Shown one piece after another: positions 354-17,907 of a DNA stretch of 20,000 nt. The notes beneath the pieces are model-generated. The model had not been told where the DNA came from and did no database searches. It saw only the letters and a program-made list of their open reading frames with translations. The position numbers were made by a program, and so were the translations under genes. Source of the stretch: an uncultured virus (IMG/VR IMGVR_UViG_3300049982_000338) (taxonomy: Duplodnaviria; Heunggongvirae; Uroviricota; Caudoviricetes). The stretch is from the IMG/VR virus record IMGVR_UViG_3300049982_000338; one strand, 5' to 3'. The number at the start of each line of letters is the position of its first letter. The stretch's first letter is position 1.

Positions 354-387
354 GCACGGCCCGGAGCCAGCTGCACCGGTCAGGCTA
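354..387 (-). promoter_or_regulatory. Conserved leader motif copy 5 with -10-like TAGCCT
   Basis: Minus strand gcagctggctccgggccgtgc (374-354) matches the GCTGGCYnnnGGCCG core. TAGCCT at 387-382. Confidence 0.65.
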
Positions 388-402
388 CCGGCCGGGCGCG
401 GT

Positions 403-1809
403 CTACTTGGTTTCCATCGAGCGGAGCCGGTCCAGGATCTTCGCCAGCTGCGCGGTCAACGTCACCGCCGGCGGCAGCCGCGGCGCATCCGGCTGCGTCA
501 CACCCAGGGTGACCGTGGTGGGGGTGTCGCCCTGCCCCACCGCCACCTGCTTCGACAGCAGCCGCACCTTCGCCGTGGTCGCCTTCGGCCACTCCTCGTA
601 GGCCGGGTGGGTGATCTGCACCTCCAGCTCATCCCCCACCTGGTAGGAGCCGAGGGGGAACTTCCCGGCGGCGGACACCTGCAACCCGTCCAGCTTCCGG
701 CCCGCCGCGCGGGAGGTGAGCAGGGTGCCGGTCACCGCCTCGGACAGCGCCGTCCGCCACCGGGCGGCGTGAATGTCGGCCCAGCTGTCCATCGGCACGT
801 TGTAGACGTCGGGCACCGTGCCGTCCACGGCCAGGTCCCGCAGCTCCTTGCTCATCGACGCCGTCACCGGGATCCGCCGGTCGGCGGCGTCCAGGTCCGG
901 ATAGCCCTCCCCGTGCATCAGCACCGGGAACCCGGCGGCGATCTCATCAGACCCAATGTCGTCCACGGTGGTCACCTGGAACGCCCGCACCTCCGGCTCG
1001 GCGGGCTGCACCACCACCGGTTCCGCCCCGGCCACCGGGGTTCCGGCCGCGTCGGTGGGCTGCACCTTCACCTCGGCGATGGCCGGCTTCACCGACGACC
1101 CCACGTAGGTGTTGTCCATCACCGACCCGTCCTCCTCATCGGACCAGGACAGCAGGCTGCCGGGGTAGGTGAAGGACAGGCCCGACGCGGCGGCGGTCCG
1201 GCCCAGCCGGGGCTCCCCGATCTGCAGGGTGCGGCGCATCGTGCCGTCGGTGTCCCGGTAGCACAGCACGTGGAACTCGATGGGGGTCTGCGTCTCCGTG
1301 AACGAGGAGATCAACTGGGTGACGTTCTTCAGGTCCGCGGCCAGCCACTCCCGGTTGCGGAGCGCCCCGCCGCCGGTCACGTTCTGCACCGTCAGACCAA
1401 TGTCGGCGCCGAACAGGGTCTGCACGTCGGCCACGATCGCGGCGATCATCGTGGCCGCGGTGGCGTTGGTGAACACCCGATCGGCGCGCAGCAGCTGGTG
1501 CGCCAGATACGACTCGAACGAGGCGGCGACCAGCTGGATGCCGGGAAACCCGTGGGCCCGCTTCCGCCCCCACACGATCCCGCCCCACTCCACATGATCG
1601 CCGTACTCCACGTACACGGCGGTACGCCGGGGAGCGGTCGCCGCCCACGGATCCCGGTCCCGCACCTCCTTATCGGTGAGGACCAGGCCCCCGGCCAGCG
1701 ACCCCACCCCGGCCAGCACGTCCTCATACGAGACGCCGATCAACGGGAGGGTCGCCAGCTCGGTGTTCGTGCGCAGGTCGTGGAACACGTACCGCCAACC
1801 GTCGGCCAC
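403..1809 (-). CDS. Minor tail / baseplate hub protein (~468 aa)
   Basis: GTG 1809 just after the upstream stop. WRYVFHDLRT...LPL, WGGIVW.R, G.PRLG, F.YPGSL.SW, YQVGD...V.I and a C-terminal coiled coil (LDRLRSME). Confidence 0.75.
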   Translation of the reverse strand: MADGWRYVFHDLRTNTELATLPLIGVSYEDVLAGVGSLAGGLVLTDKEVRDRDPWAATAPRRTAVYVEYGDHVEWGGIVWGRKRAHGFPGIQLVAASFESYLAHQLLRADRVFTNATAATMIAAIVADVQTLFGADIGLTVQNVTGGGALRNREWLAADLKNVTQLISSFTETQTPIEFHVLCYRDTDGTMRRTLQIGEPRLGRTAAASGLSFTYPGSLLSWSDEEDGSVMDNTYVGSSVKPAIAEVKVQPTDAAGTPVAGAEPVVVQPAEPEVRAFQVTTVDDIGSDEIAAGFPVLMHGEGYPDLDAADRRIPVTASMSKELRDLAVDGTVPDVYNVPMDSWADIHAARWRTALSEAVTGTLLTSRAAGRKLDGLQVSAAGKFPLGSYQVGDELEVQITHPAYEEWPKATTAKVRLLSKQVAVGQGDTPTTVTLGVTQPDAPRLPPAVTLTAQLAKILDRLRSMETK

Positions 1810-1810
1810 G

Positions 1811-3022
1811 TCAGGCCAGGAACTGCTGGTAGGCGATCGGGGAGTCCCAGCGGACAGCGGCATCCCAGGTGGCGGTCATCCCACCGACGGCGGCACCCAC
1901 CTGCACGTAGAACCGGAGGATGGTCGGCCCCTGGTACGGGCCCCGCCCGAACGGCAGCAGCAGCCCGCTGCTCGTCTCATACGGCGGGAAGGTGTCGGTG
2001 TCCCCGGTCGTGGCGTTCGACGCGTAGAAGTCGTTGACGGTGTTGCTGGGGGACAACTGGCTGCCGTTGCTGGAGTTGTCGGCCTGCCATCCGTCGGTGG
2101 GGCTGACCCAGTCGAACGAGCCGTCCGCCTTGTACAGGCGGGCCAGCAGCCGGATCGGCAGGTACTGGGCGGCACCGCCCTGCACCTGGGACTGGGCGGA
2201 GTGCCCGGCGAACCGGAACGCCAGCTTCAGCATGTACGGCAGGCCAATGTCCTCGATCGGCACGTCCGGGCCGACCTGCTGCATCTGTCCGGCGGGCAAC
2301 GCCCCGAGGCGGAGGATCGCCCCCGCGTTGGGTGCGGGCACGGTCTGGTGCCAGCGGCCGTACCCGCCGCCGGCGGCCCGCCACTGCGCCGGGGCGCGGG
2401 AGGTGTCCCACCGCTGCAGGCCCAGCGTGGGATGGTCCCGGTAGGCCCCGTGGTAGGCACCCGGCGCGGTGTCGGTGGTCTGCACCGGCCGGATCCCCCC
2501 GACCGCGACGGTCACCGGCGGCACCACCGTGCCGACCGCCACCGGCCCGGCGGAGCCGTAGACGACGGTCTGCAGCAGCAACGCCCCGGCCGGCACCGCC
2601 GGGGCCACCACCGACCCCTGGGTGGCGGCGTTGGCGCCCATCACCAGGAACACGTCCAGGTCGTTGCTGCTGCCACCGTCGTACAGCTCGTCCCGCACCC
2701 GCGCGCACACGATCCCGGCCGCGTAGGTGGAGGGGCCGGGCAGGGTGGTGGGGGTGAGCAGCTTCTCCGCCCGCAGCGCCGCGATGTAGGCGCCCTGCCC
2801 ACCGCCGCCAGAGGCGATCACGACGGCGAACGGCTGCACCCGCAGGTAGATCCCGGACGCGGTCACCGTGCCCCGGGCGGGGCCGGGGAGCAGCCCGGAG
2901 ATCGGGCGCAGCACATCGGTCGGGGACTGGGTGAGCAGCGCCCCCAGCTCCACCCGGGCGTCCTCGGCGGGCAGCAGCACCGGGGAGTCCTCGGCGCCCT
3001 GCATGAACAACGGAACGGTCAT
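1811..3022 (-). CDS. Minor tail protein (~403 aa)
   Basis: ATG 3022 with AAGGA RBS. ARVRDELYDG...G...PAVPAGALLL..V...VAVGGIRP shoulder-type region, then a beta-rich C-terminus. Confidence 0.7.
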   Translation of the reverse strand: MTVPLFMQGAEDSPVLLPAEDARVELGALLTQSPTDVLRPISGLLPGPARGTVTASGIYLRVQPFAVVIASGGGGQGAYIAALRAEKLLTPTTLPGPSTYAAGIVCARVRDELYDGGSSNDLDVFLVMGANAATQGSVVAPAVPAGALLLQTVVYGSAGPVAVGTVVPPVTVAVGGIRPVQTTDTAPGAYHGAYRDHPTLGLQRWDTSRAPAQWRAAGGGYGRWHQTVPAPNAGAILRLGALPAGQMQQVGPDVPIEDIGLPYMLKLAFRFAGHSAQSQVQGGAAQYLPIRLLARLYKADGSFDWVSPTDGWQADNSSNGSQLSPSNTVNDFYASNATTGDTDTFPPYETSSGLLLPFGRGPYQGPTILRFYVQVGAAVGGMTATWDAAVRWDSPIAYQQFLA

Positions 3023-3047
3023 CGTCGGTTCCTTCTCTCGGGTCGGG

Positions 3048-3935
3048 TCATCGCCAGGCGGGGCGGTAGGTGACGGTGGCCAGACCGACCCCGTTGTAGG
3101 AGTCGGCGAGGAACCGGACGTCATTGTCGCCGGGCTGCACGGCCCAGAACTCGGCGCCGTAGGCGCGGGCGGACAGCTGGGACACCCCATCGACGGTGAC
3201 CGTCTCCGCGGCGCAGTCCACGACCACTTTCTGACCGTCGGCCAGCGGGAACCGGAGCGCGAACGTCTGCCCGGTGGTGCGGTTCAGCAGCCGCGGATTG
3301 GGCGGCGTCGGCCCGGTCAGGGTGAACACGGTGTCCCGGGACGGGGCGCGGCCGGGGTTGTAGTCCGGCTCCAGCCCGGCCGCGCCACCGAAGTTCCACG
3401 GCGAGCGGGCGGGGAAGGTGAGCCCACCGAACACCGGCGCCACCAGCCGGCGGGTGATCGTCCGGATCCCGGCCAGCCCGGCGGCGTACTTGTACGGATC
3501 CGCCGCCCCCAACACCACGGAGAAGGTGCGGGCCCGGGTACCGCGGTGCGGGTCCACGATGCACGGCCCGGCCTGCCGCACCGCCATCTGCTTGGGCTGC
3601 GTGCCGTCCTCACGCCACAGCAGCACGTCCCGGTCCAGGACCTCCACGGCGTCCCGGAACCGGTCCTCCGCGTCGTCCATGTCCGCGCCGCACCGCACCG
3701 GCCGGAACCCGCCCGTCATGGTCAGCGTCTTCGACGGGCGGCGGCCGATCCCGAACCAGCCACCATCCCCCGCCCCCTCCTCGATGGGCAGCGACGCGTT
3801 GGTGGTGCGCCACCCGTCCACGTTCTCCACCACCCACTCGATGCCGAACTCGTCGACGCCGTTGAGCTGCAGCACCGGCGCCTCGTAGGCCGGGCCGAGC
3901 CCCCACGTCACACGTCCACCGGGCGCGAACGTCAC
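3048..3935 (-). CDS. Distal tail protein (Dit)-like minor tail protein (295 aa)
   Basis: GTGA overlap with the tape measure gene. A.DPYKY, FTLTGP..NP.L, W.VQPGDN.V and YRPAW motifs of siphovirus Dit proteins. Confidence 0.8.
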   Translation of the reverse strand: MTFAPGGRVTWGLGPAYEAPVLQLNGVDEFGIEWVVENVDGWRTTNASLPIEEGAGDGGWFGIGRRPSKTLTMTGGFRPVRCGADMDDAEDRFRDAVEVLDRDVLLWREDGTQPKQMAVRQAGPCIVDPHRGTRARTFSVVLGAADPYKYAAGLAGIRTITRRLVAPVFGGLTFPARSPWNFGGAAGLEPDYNPGRAPSRDTVFTLTGPTPPNPRLLNRTTGQTFALRFPLADGQKVVVDCAAETVTVDGVSQLSARAYGAEFWAVQPGDNDVRFLADSYNGVGLATVTYRPAWR

Positions 3936-6900
3936 CAGGCCACCTCCCCGATCTGTGCGTTGAGCAGCCCCATCCGCAGGGAGCGGGCCAGGTCCTGCTC
4001 CAAGATGGCGGCGGCCTGACCGGCGGTCGGCACCGTCGGAACCGTCAGCGTCGGGGAGTAGGTGACGTACACGGCGGCGGCCGCTTCGTGCGCCGCGATC
4101 GCGCCCTGAACGTCACCGGCGGCCTCCAGCTGACGGGCCCGGGCGCGGGCGTTGTCGAACGCGAACTGCGCCATGCTCGCCGTCGACTCGGCGTCGGCCC
4201 CCGCCCCATCGGCGGTGGTGGCGGTGTCGGTGGTGGCGGTGGCGGTGGCGGCGGCCTTCGCCGCCAGCGCGGCGGCGGTCAGCCCGGCCCGCTCGAGCAC
4301 CACGAACTTGTCCGCATCCGACCGGGCCAGGGTCACCGTGCCCGGGTCCAGCCCCTGGGCGACGGCCTGCGCCTTCCCGATCGTCTCGGTCATCAACGCC
4401 ACCTCGGCCAGCAGCGCGGACAGCTCGCGGAGGGTGACCAGGACCTTCCAGCGGACGTCGGCGGCCACGGCGCGCGCATCGGTGGCCTCGGTGATCGCCC
4501 CGTCCACCAGCTCCCGGAACGCGCCGAGGGTGGTGGCCACGGCGCCGGTCTGCTCCGCGATGCGGGTCAGCGCCGTGCTCGACGTCATCAGGTAGCCGAT
4601 GACCTGCCCGGCGACCCCGGTGTCCCCGGTCAGGGCGGGCCGCAGGTTGGACTCCAGCACCTGCCACTGCGCGCCGGTGAACACCGGCTCCGGCGCGTTG
4701 GACAGGTTCAGCCCCGCCATCCCGGGCAGCAGCATCCCGCCGCCGTCGTAGACGGCGGCGTGGACGTGGTTGTGGTGGTCCTTGCGGGTCTGCGCGTTGT
4801 ACGTGTGGTCCCGGCCGTTCTTCACGTCCGGGGTGTCGTCATAAGCCCCGTCGTAGATGAGCTCCGCCAGGGTCTTCCCGAACCCGGAGTACAGGAACCG
4901 GGCGATCGAGGCCAGACCGGCGGACCCGTTCCCACCCGGCCCGGACCCGAACCCGAAGTCGATGGCCTTGCCCTTCCCGTGGTAGCCGGGGTCCCCCGCG
5001 CGGAAGGTCGAGTTGATCCGGGCCTGCGGGATCGCGGCGTGCACCACGTCCCACACGGACCGCCACGCACCGGTGAGCCCACCGCCGGCACCAGCGGCGA
5101 CCTTCCCCGCAGCCTGGGCAGCACCGGCGGCGGCTGCCTCGGCGGCGGTGCGGGTCAGGGTGTCCAGGGCGAACCGGGACGCGTAGTTGGTGATCTCGTC
5201 CTCCACCTCCTTCCGCCGGGTCAGGGCGGCGCCCAGGATCAGCCCACCCTCAGCCATGTGCGGCACGTCGGGGTTGACCACGGCCAGGCCCATCCGGCGG
5301 GCGGTCTGGTCCAGGATCGACATGGACCGGGCGGAGGTGTTGATCGGGATATACGCCTCGTCATCCCGCACCCGGTCCCCGATGACCCGCCAGGTGTTGG
5401 GCTTGACGACCTGCGCGATCCCTCCGCGCATCGCCTTCGGCTCGATCCCGCCCTTCGCGTAGGCGTGCACGATGCCGCCGTCATGCTCATAGGCCACCCC
5501 GAGCGCGAGCCCACCGTTGGCGGTGCGGTACTGCTGCTGGAAGCGGCCCGGGGCGACCTCCATCGTGTTCAGGGCGACGGTCAGCGTCCGCCCCTTCAGG
5601 TTGTCGATCGCCTTCTGCAGGTCGGCGGCGGCCTGGGTGGCGTCGGCGGTGTCGGCGGTGATCTGCGTGGTCCGTTCGGCCGGGATCCCGAGGATCTGGT
5701 CGGCGTAGGTGCGGGCCTGCTCCTGGGACATACCCATCTGCGTGGCCGTGTCGATGAACGTCTGCCGCAACTGGGCGTCCTTGGCGACCACCTGATCGGA
5801 GGTGGCGCCCTGCTCGATCATCTTCTGGATCAGGTCGTTACCGGCGTCCCGCATCCCCAGCAGCGCGGCCTGCGCATTACGCCCGGAATCGGTGTGCAGG
5901 TCGAACTTGCCGGTGGCCTGGTCCACCTGCCCGGTCAGCCCCTCCACCGACGCCTTCGCCTGGTCGACCGACGCCCAGTAGTTGGCCTCCGCCGTGTCGG
6001 CGTCGACCGTGGACCCGGTCAGCCCGTCCAGGCTGGCCTTCTCCGCGTCCAGCGCCGTGGTCGCGGCCTGGGTGGCGGTGTCCAGCTCCGCCTGCTTGCC
6101 GCGCATCCCCTCGGCCTTCGTCTTGGCCTCGTCCATCGACGAGGCCAGGCCCAGCCATTCGGCGACGTGCCCGAGCCAGTCCGGCTTCTTCCCGCCGAAC
6201 TGCTTCTGGTATTCGGTGTTGAAGTCCTCCGATTTCAGGGTGCCGTTGGCGATGGCCGTCGCCCACGCGTCGGTCTGCGCGGACGCCTTCTCCATCTGCC
6301 CGCCGACGGCACCGACGAGGGCGCTGGCGCCGGCGATGGCGATACCCCACGGCCCGCCGAACGCGGCCAGGACACCGCTGGCCGCCCCGGACAGTTTCCC
6401 GACCTTCCCCGCCGCGCCCTCCGCGGCGCCACCGATCCCGGCGAGCGCGCCCTGCGCCGCCCCGGTCTGCCCGGACAGCCGGCCGATCGCCCCGGTCACC
6501 CCGTCGATGACCCCGGACACCCCGGTGAGCGTCTTGTAGCCGAGGAACGCGGTCAGCAGCGCCGCCACCACCGGCACCGGCAGCGCCGCGAGGACGTCGG
6601 TCAGCAACGCCAGCGACGGCAGCAGCGCCTGCCCGATCCCCGCACCGGCGACCACCACGTTCCCGATGATCTCGGCGACGTTCCCGATGATCTCCTTCAC
6701 CAGCGGCCAGTTGGTCCGCACGTACTCGGTGAACTGGTGGAACCCGTCCGAGCCACCGAACTGCTGCGACCAGGTGAGGAACTTCCCGGTCAGGTCCTCG
6801 ATGCCGGTGGCCATCTCCGTGCCGAGCGGCGCGAACGCCGTCCAGATCGCCCCCAGGGCTTCGGCGATGTTCTCCCCGGCGTGCCACAGCGCCTCGAACT

Positions 6901-9067
6901 GCGGCACCCCCTGCGTCTGCAGGGTGTCGAAGAACCGCGTCCAGGTGGGGTCCGACAGCCGCCCGATGGTGCCCTGCAGCAGCTTCCCCGCCGAGGTGGC
7001 GAACGCGTCCACAAAGCCGGTGATCCGCCCCTCCTGGGACAGCAGCCCCTCCAGGCCGGTCTGCACACCGGGCAGGATCCCGGCGGCGGCGGTGTCCTGC
7101 AGCCGCTTCCACGCCGGCCGCAGGGTGCCGTCCACGAACTCCGCGAACCGGCGGGTCGACGGGGACACCTTGTCCAGCTCGGCGTTGATCCGGGCCAGCG
7201 CGTTCGACCCGGCGTCCCCGGACCCGGCGGCGGCGGTGGCGACCGCGGCCATCGCCCCGGCCACCCCGCCCTGCGCCTGGGAGATCGAGAACGCCGACTG
7301 CCGCTGCTGGGTGGCCTGCGCCGCCACCGCGTCGCTGATCGCCCGCTGCGCGGCCTCGACCTTCCGGGCGCCGTCCTCCCGCGCCTTGCCCACCGCGGCC
7401 TCGGCGTCGCCGATTTTTCGGGCGCTGGCGACCTGAGAATCGGCGAGGGCCTGCTGTGCCAGGGCGATTTTTTCGGCTCCCTCGACGCGGGCGGCGTCGA
7501 CGTCGGCGGCGGCAGCGCCGACGTCCTTCACCCCGTCGGTCACCCGCTGCTGCGCGTCGACGAGCTGCTGCTGCGCGGCGGTCACCTGGTCGGAGCCGTC
7601 GACCCCCTTCGCCGCCTCCTCCTTCTGCTGCTCCACCAGCCGCTGCCCGGCGAGGCGCAGTTCCTTCTGCGACTGGACCTGCTGCTCGTAGCGGAGCTGC
7701 GCCTGGGCGCGGGCGGCGGCGTCGGCCTTCGGGTCGGCCATCGTCTTGTTCAGCTCGGCCTGCGCGTCGGCGACGTCGAGGACGGCTTGGCGCTGGTCCA
7801 GGGCGTTGTCGGTGACCCGGTTGGCCAGGTCCTCCAGCTGCTGCTCGGCGTCCTTCCGGGCGCCGGTCAGGTCCTCCTGCGCCTGCTGCTGCGCCTTCTG
7901 CGCCACCGTCAGCGCCCGCTCGGCGGTCTCCTGCCGGTCCAGGGCGGTCTGCACCCGGGTGGAGGCCGCGGCCTCGGCCTGCGCCACCGCGCGGCCCGCC
8001 CGGTCGGCGTCCTTCGCGGCCTGGTCCCGCGCATCGGACAATTTTCGGAGCGCGGCGTCGATGGCGGAGGCACCGTCCTGCTCGGCCCGCACCTCCGCGG
8101 CGCGGGCATCGGTGACGGTCCGGGCAGCCTTGGCGGCGGAGTCGGCCGCGTTCGCCCGGGTGTTCGCCAGCCCGGCCTCCGCCGACTCCAGCCCGCGCTG
8201 CGCGGAGGCCAGCGCGGCGGCGGACGCGGACTGCTTCCCGGCGGCCTGGGTCGCGGCGGCGGCCTGCGCGGTCTGCTGCTGCCCGAGGAGCTTCACCGCG
8301 TCCCCGACCCCGGAGAACCCGAGGGCGATCACCCCGAGCCCGGCGGCGGCCCCACCGGCGGCGGCACCGATCCCGGCGATCGCCAGCGCCGCGGCGGCGG
8401 CGGCGGGGATGATCGCGGACCCGATCCCGATGCCGGCGGCGATCAGCCCACCGATGCTCGACGTGGCGCGGGCCGCGGACCCGCCGTCGTCCACGTCGAC
8501 CTTGACGTCAGCGTTCTTGCCGTCCAGGGCGTCGACCTCGGCGCGGACCGCGGCGAGCTCCGCGATCGCCGCCGCCGCATCCGCCCGCACCGCCACATCG
8601 GAGGTGGAGCCGGCCAGGTCCCGCAGCTGGTGCTCGATCGCACCCAGCTCCAGCAGCGCGTCCCCGGTGGACACGTCGACCCCGAGCCGCTTGGACCCGA
8701 GGGTTTCCATCTGCCGGCGGATGCCGGTGATCGCGTGGTCGGCGTCGGAGGAATCCGCGCGGATCTGGATGTCCGGCAGGTCGGCCATCGCCGCCCGCAG
8801 CCGCTTGGCGAACGCGTCCCCGAACGCACCGGCGGCCCGCTCCGCCGCCGGCTTCGCCTTCCGCGCGACCTCGTCCCCGAGGGAGTCGGACACCTTCTGC
8901 CCGGTCTCCCGGGCCTTCCGCTCGACCTTGCCCAGCGCCTTGTCGTAGGAGTCCACGACCTTGCCCAGCGACCGGTCGATCTTCGCTTCGAGGTCCCGGC
9001 CGACGGCGGAGGCATCAGCTGTGACGGCGATGTAGGCGTCGCCGAGCTTCGTGCCGCCAGCAGGCAC
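3932..9067 (-). CDS. Tape measure protein (1711 aa) with C-terminal LAS-type zinc peptidase domain
   Basis: N-terminal LGDAYIAVTAD, long Ala/Gln-rich helical regions, hydrophobic segments, GGPWG, YAKGG...EAYIP and YDGGG...EPVFT..QW motifs. Lies between the chaperones and the distal tail gene. Confidence 0.93.
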   Translation of the reverse strand: MPAGGTKLGDAYIAVTADASAVGRDLEAKIDRSLGKVVDSYDKALGKVERKARETGQKVSDSLGDEVARKAKPAAERAAGAFGDAFAKRLRAAMADLPDIQIRADSSDADHAITGIRRQMETLGSKRLGVDVSTGDALLELGAIEHQLRDLAGSTSDVAVRADAAAAIAELAAVRAEVDALDGKNADVKVDVDDGGSAARATSSIGGLIAAGIGIGSAIIPAAAAAALAIAGIGAAAGGAAAGLGVIALGFSGVGDAVKLLGQQQTAQAAAATQAAGKQSASAAALASAQRGLESAEAGLANTRANAADSAAKAARTVTDARAAEVRAEQDGASAIDAALRKLSDARDQAAKDADRAGRAVAQAEAAASTRVQTALDRQETAERALTVAQKAQQQAQEDLTGARKDAEQQLEDLANRVTDNALDQRQAVLDVADAQAELNKTMADPKADAAARAQAQLRYEQQVQSQKELRLAGQRLVEQQKEEAAKGVDGSDQVTAAQQQLVDAQQRVTDGVKDVGAAAADVDAARVEGAEKIALAQQALADSQVASARKIGDAEAAVGKAREDGARKVEAAQRAISDAVAAQATQQRQSAFSISQAQGGVAGAMAAVATAAAGSGDAGSNALARINAELDKVSPSTRRFAEFVDGTLRPAWKRLQDTAAAGILPGVQTGLEGLLSQEGRITGFVDAFATSAGKLLQGTIGRLSDPTWTRFFDTLQTQGVPQFEALWHAGENIAEALGAIWTAFAPLGTEMATGIEDLTGKFLTWSQQFGGSDGFHQFTEYVRTNWPLVKEIIGNVAEIIGNVVVAGAGIGQALLPSLALLTDVLAALPVPVVAALLTAFLGYKTLTGVSGVIDGVTGAIGRLSGQTGAAQGALAGIGGAAEGAAGKVGKLSGAASGVLAAFGGPWGIAIAGASALVGAVGGQMEKASAQTDAWATAIANGTLKSEDFNTEYQKQFGGKKPDWLGHVAEWLGLASSMDEAKTKAEGMRGKQAELDTATQAATTALDAEKASLDGLTGSTVDADTAEANYWASVDQAKASVEGLTGQVDQATGKFDLHTDSGRNAQAALLGMRDAGNDLIQKMIEQGATSDQVVAKDAQLRQTFIDTATQMGMSQEQARTYADQILGIPAERTTQITADTADATQAAADLQKAIDNLKGRTLTVALNTMEVAPGRFQQQYRTANGGLALGVAYEHDGGIVHAYAKGGIEPKAMRGGIAQVVKPNTWRVIGDRVRDDEAYIPINTSARSMSILDQTARRMGLAVVNPDVPHMAEGGLILGAALTRRKEVEDEITNYASRFALDTLTRTAAEAAAAGAAQAAGKVAAGAGGGLTGAWRSVWDVVHAAIPQARINSTFRAGDPGYHGKGKAIDFGFGSGPGGNGSAGLASIARFLYSGFGKTLAELIYDGAYDDTPDVKNGRDHTYNAQTRKDHHNHVHAAVYDGGGMLLPGMAGLNLSNAPEPVFTGAQWQVLESNLRPALTGDTGVAGQVIGYLMTSSTALTRIAEQTGAVATTLGAFRELVDGAITEATDARAVAADVRWKVLVTLRELSALLAEVALMTETIGKAQAVAQGLDPGTVTLARSDADKFVVLERAGLTAAALAAKAAATATATTDTATTADGAGADAESTASMAQFAFDNARARARQLEAAGDVQGAIAAHEAAAAVYVTYSPTLTVPTVPTAGQAAAILEQDLARSLRMGLLNAQIGEVAW

Positions 9068-9096: not shown

Positions 9097-9132
9097 GCCC
9101 GGCCCGAAGCCAGCAGCGCAACCCGCAGGATA
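9097..9132 (-). promoter_or_regulatory. Conserved leader motif copy 4 with -10-like TATCCT, upstream of tape measure gene
   Basis: 21-bp identity with 10145-10165. TATCCT on the minus strand at 9132-9127. Confidence 0.75.
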
Positions 9133-9156: not shown

Positions 9157-9756
9157 TCAGGCGCGCACGACCTGCCCCCCGTCGGGCTGCATCCCGGCCA
9201 GCTGCAACCAGCCGGACGCCTCATCCGCCCACGGCGCGTCGTCCTCACCCCCGGCGGAGCTGGCCTCGGTGATGGTGGCGGGGGCGGCCAGCGATGCGTC
9301 GACCCGGGCCCGTTCCTCCGCGCTCCGCCCGTCGACCATCCGCGTGTACAGCCAGTTGCACAGCCGCTCCAGCGGCCACTCCAACAGGTCTCCCAGCCCC
9401 CGGTCGGCGGCCCGCCCCGACCACAGCTCCCAGTCCCCCACCAGCACCCCGACCAGCTGGGTGGCCTGCCACCACGGCCGACCCGCGACCCGGCCGAGGA
9501 CCCCGCGCCCCATCTCGGCCAGCAGCTCCGGGGTCACCCCACTGTCGGGGTCCATCGCGTCGTCCCACAGCTCCGCGGCCACCGCCTCGGGGAGGACGTC
9601 CAGCAGCAGGTCCGCCGGCTCGTCGGACAACACCCCCAGCACCCACACCCGCGCCGGCTGGTCGGGCACCTCGTACTCCACCCCGTCCAGGGTGAACGTC
9701 ACCGGCCCGGGGGTGTGCCGGGCCCGCCAGGCGGCGAAGTCGACCCCGCCGGTCAC
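9157..9756 (-). CDS. Tail assembly chaperone 2-like protein (199 aa)
   Basis: GTGA overlap with chaperone 1, immediately before the tape measure gene. GRPWWQATQL...WPLERLCNWLY helical region. Confidence 0.6.
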   Translation of the reverse strand: MTGGVDFAAWRARHTPGPVTFTLDGVEYEVPDQPARVWVLGVLSDEPADLLLDVLPEAVAAELWDDAMDPDSGVTPELLAEMGRGVLGRVAGRPWWQATQLVGVLVGDWELWSGRAADRGLGDLLEWPLERLCNWLYTRMVDGRSAEERARVDASLAAPATITEASSAGGEDDAPWADEASGWLQLAGMQPDGGQVVRA

Positions 9757-10112
9757 CGCCGACGCTTGGGTGCGTTCGCCTTCCAGTGCTCACCGATCGC
9801 GTCGAGGATCGGCATCACGTCATCGACGTCCAGGTCGTCGTCCCGGTCCAGCAGCCGACCGGCCACATACGAGCGGCCCGGCTCCTGCAGGCAGTCGTCG
9901 AGGAAGTTCAGCGCCAGCTTCAGCTTCTGCAGCGGCGGGGTCCGCCGCGACGACACCGGCGCGATCTCCGCGATCAGGGCGTCCTTCGGCTTCACCGCGA
10001 CCAGCTCCACCCCGTCCAGCAGGCAGCGGAACGGGGGCGTGCCGCCGGCGGCGGCATCGTCGGCGGCCGGGTCGGTCTTCGGGGTGGTGGTGAACTCGAG
10101 CATCTCGGACAC
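9753..10112 (-). CDS. Tail assembly chaperone 1 (~119 aa)
   Basis: GTG 10112 with GGAG RBS. F.CLLDGVEL.AVKPK and RLLDRDDDLD motifs; two genes upstream of the tape measure gene. Confidence 0.7.
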   Translation of the reverse strand: MSEMLEFTTTPKTDPAADDAAAGGTPPFRCLLDGVELVAVKPKDALIAEIAPVSSRRTPPLQKLKLALNFLDDCLQEPGRSYVAGRLLDRDDDLDVDDVMPILDAIGEHWKANAPKRRR

Positions 10113-10144: not shown

Positions 10145-10177
10145 GCCCGGCCCGAAGCCAGCAGCCCGCCCAGTATC
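10145..10177 (-). promoter_or_regulatory. Conserved leader motif copy 3, upstream of tail assembly chaperone
   Basis: 21 bp at 10145-10165 are identical to 9097-9117. Weaker -10-like GATACT at 10177-10172. Confidence 0.7.
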
Positions 10178-10252: not shown

Positions 10253-10783
10253 TCAGGCGCCGCCGCCGACGACGTCCTGCATCGCCCTGCGGAGGAAGGG
10301 GCGGCCGGCGCGGGCGCCCACGGTGCGGGTGTGCGCGGGCACCGTGTGGGTGAGCTGGGTGCGGGCCGCCACCCGGTGCTTCTTCACGGTGTGCGCGGCC
10401 ACCGTGTACGCCTTCCGGCCGCCCTTGGCGGGCACCGTGTAGCCGAGCTGGGTGCGGGCGGCCACCGTGTGCGCCCGGATCTTCCGCGACCGGACGGTGT
10501 GCTCGGCGACCGTCTCCGTGCCTGCCTTCCGGCCTTCGTGCACGACCAGCGCGTACTCGACGGGGGTGCCGACGGTGCCGCGGACCACCAGCCCGACGGG
10601 GGCGTCCAGGGCGGTGACGATCGACGCCCGCAGGTTCCCGGTGTCGACCGGGCAGTACAGGACGGCCCGGTTGCGGATCTCCCGGGTCACCCGCAGCACG
10701 TAGCGGGTGACCAGCCCGCCGGGTCCGGCGAGCTTGGCCTCCAGCTCCGCGCGGGCCAGTTCGACCCGCGCCGTGGCGGGCAC
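10253..10783 (-). CDS. HK97 gp10-like tail completion protein with a repetitive His/Thr/Val insertion (176 aa)
   Basis: CPVDTGNLRASI, VGTPVEYALVVHEG and terminal RPFLRRAM are hallmark motifs. Confidence 0.8.
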   Translation of the reverse strand: MPATARVELARAELEAKLAGPGGLVTRYVLRVTREIRNRAVLYCPVDTGNLRASIVTALDAPVGLVVRGTVGTPVEYALVVHEGRKAGTETVAEHTVRSRKIRAHTVAARTQLGYTVPAKGGRKAYTVAAHTVKKHRVAARTQLTHTVPAHTRTVGARAGRPFLRRAMQDVVGGGA

Positions 10784-11196: not shown

Positions 11197-11754
11197 TCAG
11201 GGGACGTGGACGGTGGCGGTGGTGGCGCCGCCGACGACCCCACCGTCGGGGCCGAACGGCACGAACGCGCCGAGGACCATGCCGACGTCCAGGGCGTCGG
11301 CGTAGGTGTAGAGCAGCGCGTCCCGGACGATCGCCGCGTCCAGCACCGCCCGGTCCGCGGCGGCGGTCTCCTCCTCCATCGTGGGGAGCAGCAGCTCGGT
11401 GCCGGCTTCCCGCACCACCGGCGCCGGGCGGACCACCCCGACCTCCACCACCACCGCCCAGGACAGATCCCGGTCACCGACGGACGTGGCGTCCTGGGCG
11501 GGGAACTGCGCGGTGGGGTACAGGTTGACCAGCCGCACCCACAGCTGCCCGCAGCAGCCGGACGCCTCATCCAGCCCGCGGTCGACCACCGCCGCCGCGC
11601 CGGACAGGACCCCCGCCGCGCACGGCGCCACCACACTCGGATCGGCGGCGGCGAGCTCGTCGTACCGGTCCAGCACCGCCCCCAGCACGGCGGCCAGGAC
11701 GGGGGCGGCCACCGGGTCCAGCACCTGCCCGCCGACCACACAGATACGGGTCAC
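11197..11754 (-). CDS. Probable tail terminator / tail completion protein (~185 aa)
   Basis: GTG 11754 (GTGA overlap). CGQLWVRLV..YP, VEVGVVR and PFGPDGGVVG motifs; position in the neck region. Confidence 0.6.
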   Translation of the reverse strand: MTRICVVGGQVLDPVAAPVLAAVLGAVLDRYDELAAADPSVVAPCAAGVLSGAAAVVDRGLDEASGCCGQLWVRLVNLYPTAQFPAQDATSVGDRDLSWAVVVEVGVVRPAPVVREAGTELLLPTMEEETAAADRAVLDAAIVRDALLYTYADALDVGMVLGAFVPFGPDGGVVGGATTATVHVP

Positions 11755-12500
11755 GGGCCGACCGCCAGCACCCGATGCCGCGTCGTGCCCGCACCCCACA
11801 CGCTGGCGGCCCGGTCCAGGCCGTCCGGGTTCACCGACCGCAGCCACGCATCCACCACCGCGATGCCGGTCAGCCCGGCGTCGGCCAGCTCCGTCGGGTC
11901 GGCGATGGACACCGAGATACCTTGGCGGGCGACGTCCCTCGTGCGGGCCGGCAACCGGCAGCCGGGGTCGGCGGTCATGCCCAGCGCCAACTCCAGGGCG
12001 TACCGGCCGGCGGCCAGGTTCGCGTCGTCGGACGCTTCCCGGCCGCGGGTGTAGCGCACCACCCAGCGGGGGGCGTACACGTCCTGGGCGACCGGCCACC
12101 CGCCGCCGTCGGTGCGGACCAGCGTCCCGTCCGGATCACACGCCCACGCATCCCCGGGCAGGGCGGCGCCGTCGAGGAGGACCTCCGCCACGGCGGTGAC
12201 CGGGCCGGGCAACCGGAACGCCCGCACCCATCCGCCGCAGCCCGCACCATTGTCGGCGGAACGGGTAGCGGCGTGCAGCGCGACCGCCCGCGGCGGCACG
12301 TCGTAGAAGGTGCGGCGCGGCGCCGGGACGTACGGGGCGAGGGTGACCTGCACGGTGCCGAACTGCCGCCCCGACAACGCCCACAGGGTCCGCACCGCCC
12401 CGGACAGGGCCGCCTCCCGCACCTCCGCGGGCAGGGCAGCCCACCGGTCCCCGAGCACCGAAGTGCTCGGGGACCAGCCGGCCGGCAGCGGGACGGTCAT
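11751..12500 (-). CDS. Head-to-tail adaptor (~249 aa)
   Basis: From ATG 12500: LWALSGRQFG, LPGPVTAVAEV.LDG, LVRTDGGGWP..QD, YTRG, CRLP.R...ARQGIS, GLTGI..VDAWL..VNP. Synteny after the tail tube gene. Confidence 0.75.
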   Translation of the reverse strand: MTVPLPAGWSPSTSVLGDRWAALPAEVREAALSGAVRTLWALSGRQFGTVQVTLAPYVPAPRRTFYDVPPRAVALHAATRSADNGAGCGGWVRAFRLPGPVTAVAEVLLDGAALPGDAWACDPDGTLVRTDGGGWPVAQDVYAPRWVVRYTRGREASDDANLAAGRYALELALGMTADPGCRLPARTRDVARQGISVSIADPTELADAGLTGIAVVDAWLRSVNPDGLDRAASVWGAGTTRHRVLAVGP

Positions 12501-12502
12501 GC

Positions 12503-13207
12503 TCAGGCGGCGGCGAGGGCCACGAGGCCCTCGGTGACCTCCGGCGGCGCGACCGAGGTGATCTGCAGGTGGAAGTGGGTCTTGGGGCCGACCTCGGTCA
12601 GCAGCGGACCCGGCACCGTCGGGGCGCCACCGTTCGCACCGGCCACGGTGTGCACCACGTCGTAGGGACCGGCGCCCCACTGCGAGTTCTCCCGCGTCGT
12701 GGACGAGATCGAGAACGACGCGGCGCCGTCCTCGATGGTGAAGTCCCCGATCTTCCCGCCCCGCAGGAACGGCAGCAGCGTGTACCCAAAGTTCGCCAGG
12801 CCGGCGCACTCCTGCCCACCGATCCCGGTCCACACCTCCAGCGCCCAACCGCCCAGCACCGGGATACCGCCGTCCATGCGGAACCCGACACCGCGGGCGG
12901 CGGCGTCCACGATCGTCTGGTTCCCGGTGATCAGGGAGACGAGGTCGGGGTCGACGCGGGTGAACGCGATCTCCGCGGACATGGCGGTCAGCCGCGAGTC
13001 GGCCGGCTCGTTGATGTCGATGTCACCGTCGGCGTCCTTGATGGTGACGGTCTCCCCGTCCTCGTACTGCGGGGACAGACCGACCGACACGAACCCCTTC
13101 GACACGCGGGTGGTGGCGGGGCCGACGACGGGGGCACCGCACTCGTCGAGCCGGGTGATCCGCATGCGCTTGCCGCGGATCGGGGCGAAGGTGAGGCCAG
13201 CAGCCAT
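12503..13207 (-). CDS. Major tail (tube) protein (234 aa)
   Basis: FAPIRGKRMRITRLDECG, GFVSV, ALEVW, YTLLPFL, GDFTIE and WGAGPYDV motifs typical of cluster B-like siphophage tail tubes. GGAG RBS. Confidence 0.85.
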   Translation of the reverse strand: MAAGLTFAPIRGKRMRITRLDECGAPVVGPATTRVSKGFVSVGLSPQYEDGETVTIKDADGDIDINEPADSRLTAMSAEIAFTRVDPDLVSLITGNQTIVDAAARGVGFRMDGGIPVLGGWALEVWTGIGGQECAGLANFGYTLLPFLRGGKIGDFTIEDGAASFSISSTTRENSQWGAGPYDVVHTVAGANGGAPTVPGPLLTEVGPKTHFHLQITSVAPPEVTEGLVALAAA

Positions 13208-13234
13208 GAGGTTCTCTCCAGGTGCTCAGGGAAT

Positions 13235-13277
13235 GAGCGCCCGGCCCTCGGCCAGCGGCGGTACAGGCCGCAGCGTA
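13235..13277 (-). promoter_or_regulatory. Conserved leader motif copy 2 with -10-like TACGCT, upstream of major tail gene
   Basis: 26-bp identity with 17863-17888. TACGCT on the minus strand at 13277-13272. Confidence 0.75.
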
Positions 13278-14653: not shown

Positions 14654-14672
14654 CTGCGCTCTCCGGTAGGGG

Positions 14673-14712
14673 CCGGCCCCGGCACCCCCGGGGAAGGGGG
14701 GGCCGGGGCCGG
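14673..14712. terminator. GC-rich hairpin after the capsid gene block
   Basis: ccggccccggc-a-ccccc / ggggg-g-gccggggccgg with a 6-nt loop, about 15 nt after the stop at 14728. Confidence 0.65.
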
Positions 14713-14727
14713 GAACGGTGCGGGGGG

Positions 14728-15168
14728 TCAGGCGGTGCGGCGGGCCGCGCGGCGCGCGGCCGGCTTCTCACCCTCGGCGTCACCCTCGGCGGCGCCGTCC
14801 ACCTCATCGGTGGTGGGGTTCTCCGCCGCGGCCGGCGTCTCGCCGCCGGGCCGGTCGGTGAGGTGCTGACGGCCGCCGTCGACCTTCGCCGGCAGCGACT
14901 CCGGCGCCGACCCGGACAGAATGTCCGCGGCCTGCACATCGGTGGGCAGCGCCGTGTTGCCCAGCGCGGAACCGGAACGGGCCTCGGCGTCCACGACCTC
15001 GTTCGAGCCGGGGGTGTAGCCGGCGGCCTCCGCGACCGAGGCGGGGACACGGAACCCGTCGGCGACGGTCCGCACCACCTCAGGCTGGTCACCGGCGGCG
15101 GCCAGCAGCTTGCGGGCCACCTCCGGCTGGTCGGCGGACAGGGCGTAGACGTCAACGAACTCAGGCAC
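14728..15168 (-). CDS. Hypothetical virion-associated protein (146 aa); small folded N-domain plus acidic disordered tail
   Basis: AAGGAG RBS before GTG. ARKLLAAAGDQPEVVRTVADGFRVP N-domain and basic C-terminus AARRAARRTA. Confidence 0.7.
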   Translation of the reverse strand: MPEFVDVYALSADQPEVARKLLAAAGDQPEVVRTVADGFRVPASVAEAAGYTPGSNEVVDAEARSGSALGNTALPTDVQAADILSGSAPESLPAKVDGGRQHLTDRPGGETPAAAENPTTDEVDGAAEGDAEGEKPAARRAARRTA

Positions 15169-15185
15169 AGCAGACTCCTTGGGGG

Positions 15186-16019
15186 TCAGGCGGTCAGATC
15201 AACAGGAACAGCGACGAGCCCGCAGGAGTGCCCGACGGACACGATGCGGGCCGCCTGGACCGTGGCGACGTTCGTCTCCCGGTCCAGGGCATCAGGGAGG
15301 TTGTGCGGCAGGTCGATGACCGGGCCGCGGGCGACCTGCACCGGCCCGGTGGCGTACAGCCACGTCACCGCATCAGTGCGGGGCTCACCGGCCGGCCCGG
15401 TGCCGGGGTAGCCGGTGCCGAACACCACCCGGGTGCCCAGCTCGGTACGCATCACCCCACGGGACTCGGCCACCAGCCCCTTCAGGGCGGGGAACGCGAC
15501 GCGGGGGGCGTGGATCACCCCGACCGCACCGGACATTCCCCCGATCGCCTCCTCCAGCCGCCCGAACGCCAGCGCCGCCTTCAGCGGGGTGCCGGACAGG
15601 ATGGTCACCTCGTCACCGGCGGCGAGGTGCGGGGCGGCCACGTCATCGGGCCAGCCGACACCGGTCCAGTAGGCGCGCTCGACCGCGGTCTGCTCCGCCA
15701 GCCGCAGCCGGGTGCGGGCGATCTCCCGGAGCCGCTCCAGGGTGGTGCCGACCGGCTTGCAGCGGACCCGGGACGACACCCCGAACGGGGGCGCCTCGAC
15801 CTGCGGCAGACCACCCTCCGGGACGTCGAGGGGGAACACGTCGTCGGGCTGCGGGCAGCCGACCGGGAACACGTCGGGCAGCCCGCAGATCGTGGGCTCC
15901 CAGGTGATCCCGGACTGCACGTGCGGATCGTCGGGGTCCAGCACCGTCGCAGCGGAGTACAGCCCGTACCCGGCCGCCTCGGGGGCCGGTTCCTTCACGG
16001 GGAACAGCGGGGTGGTCAC
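15186..16019 (-). CDS. Second capsid protein, probable capsid pentamer protein (277 aa)
   Basis: Directly follows the major capsid gene. GLYSAATV, ITWEPTICG, GVIHAP, T.LGT.VVFG.GY and LYATG.V motifs match the gene that follows the capsid in cluster B-like phages. GGAG RBS. Confidence 0.65.
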   Translation of the reverse strand: MTTPLFPVKEPAPEAAGYGLYSAATVLDPDDPHVQSGITWEPTICGLPDVFPVGCPQPDDVFPLDVPEGGLPQVEAPPFGVSSRVRCKPVGTTLERLREIARTRLRLAEQTAVERAYWTGVGWPDDVAAPHLAAGDEVTILSGTPLKAALAFGRLEEAIGGMSGAVGVIHAPRVAFPALKGLVAESRGVMRTELGTRVVFGTGYPGTGPAGEPRTDAVTWLYATGPVQVARGPVIDLPHNLPDALDRETNVATVQAARIVSVGHSCGLVAVPVDLTA

Positions 16020-16041
16020 GGGCGGGGCGCTCCTTCCATGA

Positions 16042-16078
16042 CCGAGGCCGGGGAGCCGGTCAGGCTCCCCGGCCTCGG
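16042..16078. terminator. Perfect 16-bp hairpin between the two capsid genes (terminator/attenuator or mRNA stabiliser)
   Basis: ccgaggccggggagcc (16042-16057), loop ggtca, ggctccccggcctcgg (16063-16078). Confidence 0.75.
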
Positions 16079-16096
16079 GTCAGGCGCTACGAGGGG

Positions 16097-17833
16097 TCAG
16101 GAGGCGGCGACGGCGACCGCGCCACCGGCGTTCGTGTAGCCGTTCGCGGCGATCGGCACCGTGTACACCCGGGAGTCGTGACCGGTCTTGGCGACCAGCA
16201 GGCTCTCCTCGGTGAACAGCCCGGTGAACTCGTTCTCCACCAGACCAGCGGAGTCGTAGATCGTGTCCAGGCTGATGACGTCCCCGAGACCCCGAACGAA
16301 CGTGCCCGCCGGGTAGACCAGGAACGACACCGTGGCGGGCCAACGCGCGGCGGCCGTGGCCTGACCGATCGCCGAGTCCTGCCAGTCGTAGACGAACTGG
16401 GGGGCGACGTTGCGGAGGGTGAACCAGCCGCGGATCTGCTGGTCGGTCACCGCGAGCAGGTCGGTGCCGCCCTGCCACGCCAGGTCCGCCCGGATCGCCG
16501 GAACGATCCACGCCGGGAACACGGCCTCCAGCGTCGTACCCCGCGCCATGCGGTGCCGGTACTTGACGTCCTCGACGGCGAGCTCGATGGCGTTCATCAC
16601 CGGCGTGCCGGCGCCGCCACCCGGGTTCGGGAGCGCGGTCACCGCGGTGGACAGCGCCACCATCCGGGCGATCGACTTGGCGGAAATGCGGTGCGCGTGC
16701 GCCGCCAGCGCGCCACGCACGACGCGGGCGGTCAGCTCCGGGTACGCCCGGTTCTGCAGGATGCCGGCGGTGATGCACAGCCCCTCGACCCCGGCCCGCT
16801 CCTCCGTGAAGTCCGGGCAGGGCACCCGGTAGCAGGGCTTCGTCTGCCCCGCGATGGCCTGAGCCTCCGTCTGCGAGAACCCGGTGCCGTCGAAGATGGA
16901 CCGGAAGTCGGGGCCCGGGGTGAACCGAATCCCACCCCTGGCGACGTTGATCTCCGGCAGGTCGACCAGCGCGTCAGCGGCCTCGTACTCCGCCAGGTCG
17001 TACAGCGTCTCCGACGGGGAGCACCAGCCGCCGGCGGCGATCAGGTTGCCGCCGGGCAGCCGGGACTGGTCGATGGCGTAGTCGATGACCTGCGAGTCGG
17101 TGACGGCCTTGGCGACCAGGCCGGGCTCGAAGTCCTTCCGCAGCAGCGCGATGCCGTGCTTCATGCGGGTACGGCCACCGGGCAGCGGCGCCGACGGGTA
17201 CTCCGACGCACGCCGGGACACGGCCTCGGCGACGTCCATGAACGACCCGAACGGGGTACCGGCCTGGTGGCCGGGGGCCTCCGGGGCGGCGATCAGGGTG
17301 ACCGGGCGACGCTCGGGGGCGGCCGGCTTCGGGGACCGCGGCGCCAGGTCAGCGACCCGGGCGCGGGTGCGGGCACCACCAGCCGGCTTCACGGCGGCGG
17401 CGGTGACGGCCTGCGGCTGGTCGATCTCCGACGCGTCGTCGGGAACCGTGACGTCATCGGCCTCGGTGCCGTCCGCGTCCGCGTCGACCGTCTCGTCGGC
17501 GGGGGCGGGGGCCAGGGCGTCGCCGAGGCCGGCGAGCTTGTCGCGGCGGGCGGTAGCGGCCTCCGCGCGGGTGTCCTGCTCGACCCGGACGGTGGTGACG
17601 ATCTCGGCGAGGCGCTCGGCCTCGGCCACGTCGTCGTCGGTCAGGAAGTCCAGGCCGCGGATGGCCTCGAACGCGGCGACGGCCTGCGCCTCGAGGTCGG
17701 CCAGGCCGGCGTCGTCCAGACCGGTCGCACCGTCGGCGGGCAGGGCGATCGGGGTGTCACTGTTGTCGGCGTACACCGTGAAGCGGGCGCCGGTCAGGTC
17801 ACGCTTGATGCGCGGGAGGGTGGACAGGTTCAC
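16097..17833 (-). CDS. Major capsid protein (cluster B-like hexamer type) with long N-terminal scaffold-like region (~578 aa)
   Basis: LIAAGGWCSPSETLYD, DLPEINVARGGI, KPCYRVPCPDF, GLCITAGILQNRAYPEL, LDTIYDS...N.FTGLFTEE motifs typical of this actinophage capsid family. GTG 17833 has an AGGAG RBS. Confidence 0.85.
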   Translation of the reverse strand: MNLSTLPRIKRDLTGARFTVYADNSDTPIALPADGATGLDDAGLADLEAQAVAAFEAIRGLDFLTDDDVAEAERLAEIVTTVRVEQDTRAEAATARRDKLAGLGDALAPAPADETVDADADGTEADDVTVPDDASEIDQPQAVTAAAVKPAGGARTRARVADLAPRSPKPAAPERRPVTLIAAPEAPGHQAGTPFGSFMDVAEAVSRRASEYPSAPLPGGRTRMKHGIALLRKDFEPGLVAKAVTDSQVIDYAIDQSRLPGGNLIAAGGWCSPSETLYDLAEYEAADALVDLPEINVARGGIRFTPGPDFRSIFDGTGFSQTEAQAIAGQTKPCYRVPCPDFTEERAGVEGLCITAGILQNRAYPELTARVVRGALAAHAHRISAKSIARMVALSTAVTALPNPGGGAGTPVMNAIELAVEDVKYRHRMARGTTLEAVFPAWIVPAIRADLAWQGGTDLLAVTDQQIRGWFTLRNVAPQFVYDWQDSAIGQATAAARWPATVSFLVYPAGTFVRGLGDVISLDTIYDSAGLVENEFTGLFTEESLLVAKTGHDSRVYTVPIAANGYTNAGGAVAVAAS

Positions 17834-17862
17834 GGGGGAGGCTCCTGGGTGCTCGGAAGTGC

Positions 17863-17907
17863 GAGCGCCCGGCCCTCGGCCAGCGGCGTGTTCCGACTCG
17901 GAGGGTA
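17863..17907 (-). promoter_or_regulatory. Conserved leader motif copy 1 with -10-like TACCCT, upstream of major capsid gene
   Basis: 26 bp at 17863-17888 are identical to 13235-13260. TACCCT on the minus strand at 17907-17902. Confidence 0.75.

Follow-up and report, generated by a model that had tools for sequence, protein, structure and literature searches.

A conserved bulged hairpin upstream of capsid, tail and other genes in an uncultured siphophage and related actinophages

Introduction

What is the role of a short inverted repeat that recurs five times on one strand of a phage structural module, each time shortly before a start codon? This question is raised by a 20,000-nt stretch of DNA (73% G+C) from an uncultured virus of the Caudoviricetes (IMG/VR record IMGVR_UViG_3300049982_000338), which is referred to as a whole as the window. 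An initial annotation, made from the letters alone, had proposed a structured leader with compensatory changes upstream of the genes for capsid, tail tube, tail assembly chaperone, tape measure and one further product, and had interpreted it as either a cis-regulatory RNA or a hairpin DNA site coordinating a late-gene regulon. The control of late genes in actinobacteriophages is poorly understood, and the few repeated motifs described (SAS/ESAS, stoperators) are cluster-specific. The element analysed here is real and conserved well beyond the window and appears to be undescribed, and a function is proposed for it from comparative analysis.

Five intergenic copies precede start codons in the window

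The motif GCTGGCYNNNGGCCG matched the window five times, always on the minus strand and always between genes (357-371, 9100-9114, 10148-10162, 13242-13256 and 17870-17884). In comparison, 200 dinucleotide-preserving shuffles gave a mean of 0.07 matches and a maximum of 2, and none reached 5. The gaps that carry the motif, defined using a frame plot of third-codon-position G+C (GC3), are among the few intergenic gaps longer than 50 nt. From copy 1 to copy 5, the cores end 36, 34, 35, 32 and 27 nt ahead of the start codons at 17833, 13207, 10112, 9067 and 329, respectively, each of which is preceded by a Shine-Dalgarno sequence. The number, strand and placement of the copies had been described correctly in the initial annotation, as had the identity of copies 1 and 2 over 26 nt and of copies 3 and 4 over 21 nt. 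The pairings it had drawn for the outer stem (CGCC/GGCG, GGGCT/GGCTC, GCT/GGC and GGTGCA/TGCACC) can all be drawn as stated, and PHROG and Pfam searches agree with the genes it had named, weakly so for the chaperone. One further loose match (12003-12016) is intragenic, lacks the flanks and was not found by the covariance model introduced below. The five hairpins and their cmsearch scores are as follows.

17866..17888, minus strand: copy 1, basal stem CGCC/GGCG, GC bulge, apical stem UGGCC/GGCCG, loop GAG; before the major head gene; 40.2 bits
13238..13260, minus strand: copy 2, sharing its 26 nt with copy 1; upstream of the major tail gene; 38.5 bits
10143..10167, minus strand: copy 3, basal stem GGGCU/GGCUC, loop UCG; before the putative chaperone gene; 42.4 bits
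9097..9117, minus strand: copy 4, basal stem GCU/GGC, loop UCG; before the tape measure gene; 41.3 bits
351..377, minus strand: copy 5, basal stem GGUGCA/UGCACC, loop CCG; before the unannotated gene starting at 329; 40.9 bits

The hairpin recurs before the same genes in other actinophages

Relatives were found by searches with the tail-tube protein, the capsid protein and the 23-nt core. Among them were three viral contigs, G001 (87 kb), G002 (95 kb) and G003 (52 kb, with terminal repeats), whose capsid proteins are 82%, 61% and 55% identical to that of the window. All three carry the same hairpin, with different loops, before their capsid and major tail genes, and also one before the tape measure gene, which in G001 and G002 is a UGGUU/GACCG variant. 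In these last two contigs, lysin and a head-morphogenesis gene are likewise preceded by the hairpin, and some additional genes of the contigs have it too. With a covariance model constructed on 29 sites, a search of 35 sources (629,706 bases) yielded 37 matches at E<=0.0015, plus weaker variants; the 22 of these located in the window and G001-G003 each lie upstream of an open reading frame (ORF) with a Shine-Dalgarno sequence.

The element was also found in named phages of several hosts. Gordonia phage Jambalaya has four copies, before its major capsid, major tail, tape measure and lysin A genes, and a 35-nt blastn query matched 49 Gordonia phage records, mostly at four places each among the matches listed, in unannotated DNA. 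A hairpin precedes the major tail gene and, judged by eye, the capsid gene of Gordonia phage Ribeye, the capsid gene of Mycobacterium phage Godines (Rosebushvirus) and the tape measure gene of Microbacterium phage Hendrix. More distant prophages, with capsids 35-43% identical to that of the window, carry it as well; in Micromonospora prophages it stands before the capsid and before the major tail protein, and in two Streptomyces prophages upstream of the capsid, in one of them as a tandem pair. Capsid-based scans gave at least 12 loci in genome contigs and at least 5 in metagenome contigs. A pattern scan of viral contigs returned at least 124 stretches, and about 13 of the 80 listed have, by eye, the succession of box (see below), hairpin, Shine-Dalgarno sequence and start codon; the others were dropped as coding-sequence matches. 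SM23, PG1 and YDN12 gave no model match at E<=0.1. YDN12 does hold a look-alike with a 4-bp stem, recognised by eye.

Across the window, G001-G003 and Jambalaya, 21 of 28 sites precede virion or lysis genes. In five whole host genomes (6.6-10 Mb), for each of which 150 of ~20,000 candidates were scored, the sole matches at E<=0.05 were prophage sites. Judged by this distribution, the element is a family spread over many actinophages and not a five-copy peculiarity of one phage. Between Gordonia phages and Micromonospora prophages its core does not vary, and the genes it marks are the same, so it could be used to annotate late promoters and transcription units.

Compensatory changes occur in both stems

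For the analysis of covariation, 43 distinct sites were aligned, many of them paralogous or orthologous and 14 of them taken from a pattern scan in which the 3' flank GGGC was fixed. The fold drawn by the initial annotation, comprising a basal stem, a GC bulge and the apical stem UGGCY/GGCCG, paired 84.4% of cells and had a covariation score of 0.235 in comparison to 0.174 in shuffles. Neither the score nor the percentage of paired cells was reached in any of 500 shuffles (0/500), and slid registers all scored below this fold. The covariation among homologues thus exceeded both kinds of control, and the compensatory changes that had been read from the window alone were found in both stems.

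Two basal pairs were paired in 43/43 sites, namely 13/31 (CG in 36, UG in 4, AU in 3) and 14/30 (UG in 22, CG in 19, AU in 1, UA in 1), and the apical pair 20/26 was CG in 40 sites and UA in 3. Independent double changes that kept the pairing included A14-U30 in copy 5 of the window, U14-A30 in the G001 tape-measure leader and A13-U31 in Micromonospora capsid leaders, and the apical change from C-G to U-A occurred in the G001 and G002 tape-measure leaders and in the capsid leader of locus L049. The Streptomyces copies had basal stems of 5-6 bp that were quite different in sequence. Past 3-4 pairs, outer basal pairing was near background (11/33 in 25/43 sites, 10/34 in 19/43). The 2-nt bulge was GC in 43/43 sites, as invariant as had been claimed. 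The triloop had been described as variable, which holds for its first two bases; the third was G in 43/43 sites, making the loop N-N-G. We conclude from the aligned sites that this is a conserved structured element and not a chance repeat.

Substitutions in the core pairs are one-sided

Across the eight core pairs of the same 43 sites, 96 cells were G-U in comparison to 5 that were A-C. The 5' partner varied between C and T (columns 13, 14 and 21, all facing G), and the 3' G never varied. The outer U-G pair of the apical stem was invariant and is never complementary when the site is read as a duplex repeat (43/43). This asymmetry points to a sense strand that folds and does not fit a symmetric duplex operator, in which substitutions would be expected on either half; here the variation was on the 5' half only. 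As the simplest reading, it favours a hairpin in the mRNA. The initial annotation had left open RNA or a hairpin DNA site; the pattern favours RNA over a duplex DNA site, and would also fit a hairpin of the sense DNA strand.

A -10-like box lies upstream of the hairpin

In 31 of 45 sites the bulge was preceded, at a distance of 8-20 nt, by a TANNNT box, in comparison to 0.27% of 20,000 random positions in these phages. When NANN[AC]T was admitted as well, the count rose to 39/45, in comparison to 7.8% of random positions. The box sequences include TACCCT, TACGCT, TATCCT, CACACT and CAGACT and have the A at position 2 and T at position 6 of a SigA/sigma-70-type -10 hexamer. The boxes in the window are given below, four of them with their distance ahead of the GC bulge of the copy named.

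17902..17907, minus strand: TACCCT; copy 1, 17 nt
13272..13277, minus strand: TACGCT; copy 2, 15 nt
10172..10177, minus strand: GATACT, upstream of copy 3; read directly and counted as NANN[AC]T
9127..9132, minus strand: TATCCT; copy 4, 12 nt
382..387, minus strand: TAGCCT; copy 5, 10 nt

Two spacing groups were apparent. Capsid and tail leaders mostly have TACCCT or TACGCT at 13-18 nt, and a short-spacing group, at 9-12 nt, includes the lysin, head-morphogenesis and tape-measure leaders. Since the box lies upstream of the hairpin, the unit would consist of a promoter plus a 5' leader hairpin, and the hairpin looks like the downstream half of such a promoter-plus-leader cassette. In being G+C-rich and intergenic it resembles an intrinsic terminator; however, the hairpins are followed by C-rich 3' flanks with no U tract, and they stand after, not before, the promoter-like box. 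A terminator scan of the window gave 4 sites, all on the plus strand, and none of the five hairpins was among them.

A possible shared control of late genes and its alternatives

On balance we lean towards a reading in which the copies are transcribed, each as the 5' leader of its own late transcription unit, and through them virion and lysis genes would come under shared post-initiation control. Host RNA polymerase would initiate at a -10-only promoter, the TANNNT-like box that precedes the hairpin by 9-18 nt. Over its first ~30 nt, the resulting mRNA would then fold into a variable basal stem of 3-6 bp, a 5' GC bulge and the invariant apical stem UGGCY/GGCCG, closed by a U-G pair and capped by the loop N-N-G, with the Shine-Dalgarno sequence and start codon following 25-40 nt later. 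A trans-acting factor, or RNA polymerase itself, would read this hairpin in a sequence-specific manner, since the bulge and apical stem are kept across phages with capsids 35-45% identical and are absent elsewhere in the searched host chromosomes. The control could be protection of the 5' end and/or read-through by polymerase of strong intercistronic hairpins, whose occurrence in the window (see below) makes the second option attractive. The repeat, its recurrence at orthologous genes, the covariation, the sense-strand asymmetry and the upstream box are observed; transcription from the box, folding of the RNA, the binding factor and the direction of regulation are inferred.

A bolder proposal, which we offer only tentatively, is that the hairpin is the RNA operator of a previously unrecognised late-gene control system common to a large lineage of actinophages, namely the phages with 'capsid hexamer/pentamer' heads that infect Gordonia, Mycobacterium, Microbacterium, Micromonospora and Streptomyces. 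Here the nascent bulged hairpin would recruit a factor or act on the polymerase directly, in the manner of HK022 put RNA, and polymerases from 4-8 late promoters would become resistant to the strong intercistronic hairpins. If true, this would tie the output of virion and lysis genes to one signal.

Several observations weigh against shared late control through a specifically read leader. No shared -35 hexamer, for which a sigma-70/SigA-type promoter would call at 16-18 nt spacing, was seen by eye, and a scan with the two-hexamer sigma-70 consensus gave 0 promoters in the window. The five 46-nt sites fold no better than shuffled sequence (z -0.29 to +1.20), so the claim of structure rests on comparison and not on thermodynamics. 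Minimum-energy folds of whole leaders differ by site and often choose other pairings; in them a hairpin half was often paired with the Shine-Dalgarno region, a candidate interaction that we set aside as inseparable from chance at this base composition. RNAalifold prefers another register (C16-G, with a G bulge). We rejected that register, which shows no covariation and breaks in exactly the two sites where the one adopted here compensates. Kinship among the sites and the scan with GGGC fixed mean that the shuffle statistics overstate independence, and the specificity against host genomes rests on the 150 of ~20,000 first-look candidates scored per genome. The link to late genes is also incomplete. 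The 'late-gene regulon' of the initial annotation stands as an association mainly with virion and lysis genes in several lineages, and at the remaining 7 of the 28 sites the gene that follows is not obviously late (ParB-like, peptidase-like, small ORFs and unknowns). Finally, when 70 ORFs of G003 were compared by tblastn with G001, G002, the window, Jambalaya, prophage loci and the motif-less SM23, no candidate binding protein emerged and only structural genes were shared, although fast-evolving small proteins escape BLAST.

The same element could act without any specific reader protein, as a 5' stabiliser that caps abundant late mRNAs against 5'-end-dependent RNases. Stem-loops at the 5' end stabilise mRNAs in this way in other systems, and the hairpin stands before genes whose products are required in large amounts (capsid, tail tube, tape measure, lysin). 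Where the spacing is 9-12 nt, a transcript starting ~7 nt past the box would begin directly with the hairpin. In the capsid and tail leaders, where the spacing is 14-18 nt, the transcript would instead carry ~5-10 unpaired nt 5' of the stem. Moreover, a stabiliser needs structure and not sequence, yet the GC bulge, the apical stem and the loop G are invariant across host genera (bulge and loop G in 43/43), which argues for specific recognition, and the stability of the hairpin is modest and not above that of shuffles. We regard this explanation as rather unlikely. A duplex-DNA operator, with a dimeric phage repressor or activator bound to TGGCY-NNN-GGCCG in the early transcribed region of late promoters, is more doubtful still. 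It would suit an inverted repeat with free variation at the first two bases of its central spacer and a position just downstream of a -10-like box, and Jambalaya is temperate, with an annotated immunity repressor. The element is also multi-copy, orientation-fixed and intergenic, like the stoperators mentioned in PMC5559632. A duplex-binding protein, however, would not select basal stems that change in sequence with complementarity kept, and a palindromic site would vary on both halves, whereas here the substitutions are one-sided (the G-U excess given above) and the outer T...G of the repeat is never complementary. The element is also found in a Rosebushvirus mycobacteriophage, which belongs to a lytic group.

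Cleavage of one long late transcript at the hairpins, by a host or phage RNase, into separately stable mRNAs would account for copies lying between cistrons of one co-oriented gene block. G003 encodes a 191-aa protein (locus L025, 4356-4931) that matches PHROG 645, labelled 'RNase E' (E 1.7e-33), but Pfam gave nothing for this protein, and no relative turned up by tblastn in G001, G002 or Jambalaya. The stem is only 8-11 bp long and interrupted, whereas RNase III requires a longer one, and a processing site has no need of an enriched upstream -10-like box; we consider this explanation improbable. The box is equally left unexplained if the hairpin acts at the DNA level, for example as a single-stranded DNA promoter. 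Such promoters are used by the N4 virion RNA polymerase and have a short stem and a 3-nt loop, a geometry similar to the 5-bp stem and 3-nt loop seen here. The fairly constant distance to the start codon (25-40 nt) and a G-T pattern that would fit the sense DNA strand too are in keeping with this idea. However, among the ORFs searched, none of RNA-polymerase size and no such PHROG annotation was found in the complete G003 or in the listed parts of the Jambalaya annotation, and we give a DNA-level hairpin very little credence.

The favoured reading, a promoter followed by a specifically recognised leader hairpin, is directly testable, since cultured, non-pathogenic systems carry the element, for example Jambalaya or Wizard on Gordonia terrae 3612. 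The element might also serve as a portable promoter-leader part for expression in high-G+C actinobacteria, and as a bait for the factor that would read it.

Comparison with described elements

A cmscan of the whole window against Rfam 15 (E<=1) matched nothing at the five sites, in agreement with the initial annotation, which had recognised no named family in it. The sole matches, to mir-3155 twice at 16033-16084 (28.7 and 25.3 bits in comparison to a gathering score of 70), are spurious. The initial interpretation was thus supported in part, namely in describing a conserved, structured element with compensatory changes and no Rfam match.

In lambda nut (boxA/boxB) and HK022 put, short hairpins formed near the promoter end of a nascent phage transcript influence the polymerase during elongation; put has two of them side by side. 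Capsid and tail leaders here often carry two adjacent hairpins as well (see below). Unlike nut and put, the element has no Rfam match, its loop is N-N-G and not a GNRA-like pentaloop, it is present in 4-8 copies per genome before late genes and not in two after early promoters, and no N-like protein was identified. Class III (late) transcripts of T7, such as the gene 10 leader, have a conserved 5' stem-loop followed by a strong ribosome-binding site, and are made by the phage's own RNA polymerase from 23-bp promoters. The present hairpin likewise stands ahead of capsid and other late genes, but its box resembles a host -10 element and it contains an invariant bulge. In both cases the likeness would be one of functional resemblance and not of membership.

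Of the elements described so far, the closest are the stoperators and the SAS/ESAS repeats of Cluster K mycobacteriophages. Stoperators are asymmetric duplex sites bound by the immunity repressor. Those of Cluster A actinophages, mentioned in PMC5559632, resemble the present element in their many copies in short intergenic spaces, in one orientation to transcription and through the structural genes; the leader hairpin differs in its hairpin covariation and G-U asymmetry. The SAS of Cluster K is a 13-bp sequence that abuts the translation start, and ESAS is an imperfect 17-bp inverted repeat whose spacer measures 4-13 bp and whose consensus differs between Cluster K subclusters (PMC3203893). 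SAS/ESAS share with our element the character of a repeated, orientation-fixed actinophage motif before a subset of genes that is kept at orthologous genes of related phages, includes an inverted repeat and has no known function (PMC3203893). The leader hairpin differs from them in its arms of 5 bp plus 3-6 bp, its 3-nt loop and its end 25-40 nt before the start; it also follows a -10-like box, has a core invariant across host genera and is unrelated in sequence. Its geometry places it outside the Cluster K motifs. Other repeated intergenic motifs are reported in a DR-cluster genome note (PMC9302106). The words 'stem-loop' and 'promoter' do not occur in the main text of the Gordonia phage paper. 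No description of the element, its motif string included, was found in the literature covered, which did not extend to subscription journals and phagesdb notes.

Further hairpins around the leaders

Directly after copy 1 lies a second hairpin, whose sequence is variable between sites.

17851..17866, minus strand: second hairpin, stem GCUCG/CGAGC

A second hairpin was also seen at 13223-13238 (minus strand) in the window and in the capsid or tail leaders of loci L014, L021, L024, L051 and L083. Its place is kept and its stem varies (GCUCG/CGAGC, GCUCA/UGAGC, CUCGG/CCGAG, CGCAU/AUGCG, CGUGA/UCACG). With a stem of at least 5 bp it was present at 15 of 43 sites, in comparison to 7.7 +/- 2.5 in shuffles, and is usual in capsid and tail leaders.

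Two very strong hairpins flank the capsid gene. One (17920-17961, minus strand; -47.1 kcal/mol for an 81-nt stretch, z -5.47) lies between the stop codon of the upstream gene (17980) and the capsid -10-like box, and resembles an element that would insulate the capsid promoter or terminate transcription before it. The order of the whole unit accordingly looks like insulating hairpin, -10 box, leader hairpin, Shine-Dalgarno sequence and start codon. The other (16033-16084, minus strand; -49.8 kcal/mol, z -4.95), between the capsid stop codon and the next gene, has a run of 14 G+C-rich pairs without a U tract and might act downstream of the capsid gene as an attenuator or 3' stabiliser.

Variants were seen in other phages. 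In a Streptomyces prophage (locus L035, 9701-9778), two tandem hairpins 33 nt apart lie upstream of the capsid gene, with basal stems GUGUCC/GGAUGC and GACCC/GGGUC and a 3-nt GUC bulge in place of GC. In the Hendrix capsid leader (L188, ~440-500), the apical halves GCUGGC ... GGGCCGG are split, by eye, by an insertion of ~21 nt that can itself form a small hairpin. At short-spacing sites in loci L016, L018 and L021, CCCC-N(4-6)-GGGG hairpins abut the upstream side of CA(C/G)ACT boxes. These belong to the head-morphogenesis leaders of G001 and G002 and might either terminate the preceding unit or form part of the promoter.

Gene content of the window

All genes of the window are on the minus strand, as judged from the GC3 frame plot, and PHROG and Pfam matches identify the window, by homology, as a siphophage structural module. 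The sequence occurs in one soil-metagenome DNA run, which may be its source, and no RNA run was listed as containing it. The chaperone call is putative and rests on a PF23781 match below the cutoff together with a position just before the tape measure gene. The genes are as follows.

16097-17833, minus strand: major head protein (phrog_777, E 2e-163)
15186-16019, minus strand: unnamed family of unknown function adjoining the capsid gene (phrog_779)
12503-13207, minus strand: major tail protein (phrog_792, E 2e-69)
11751-12497, minus strand: head-tail adaptor (PHROG)
10253-10783, minus strand: neck protein (PHROG)
9753-10112, minus strand: putative tail assembly chaperone (PF23781, 23.7 bits in comparison to a cutoff of 27)
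3932-9067, minus strand: tape measure (8 PHROG families)
3048-3935, minus strand: Dit (PHROG/Pfam)
downstream of Dit, minus strand: minor tail proteins (PHROG)
start codon at 329, minus strand: unannotated gene, continuing past the window edge

The phrog_779 gene occupies the place of the 'major capsid pentamer protein' annotated in mycobacteriophage PG1. The gene preceding the capsid gene (17980-18426) encodes a ParB C-terminal domain (PF18064, E 1.8e-9).

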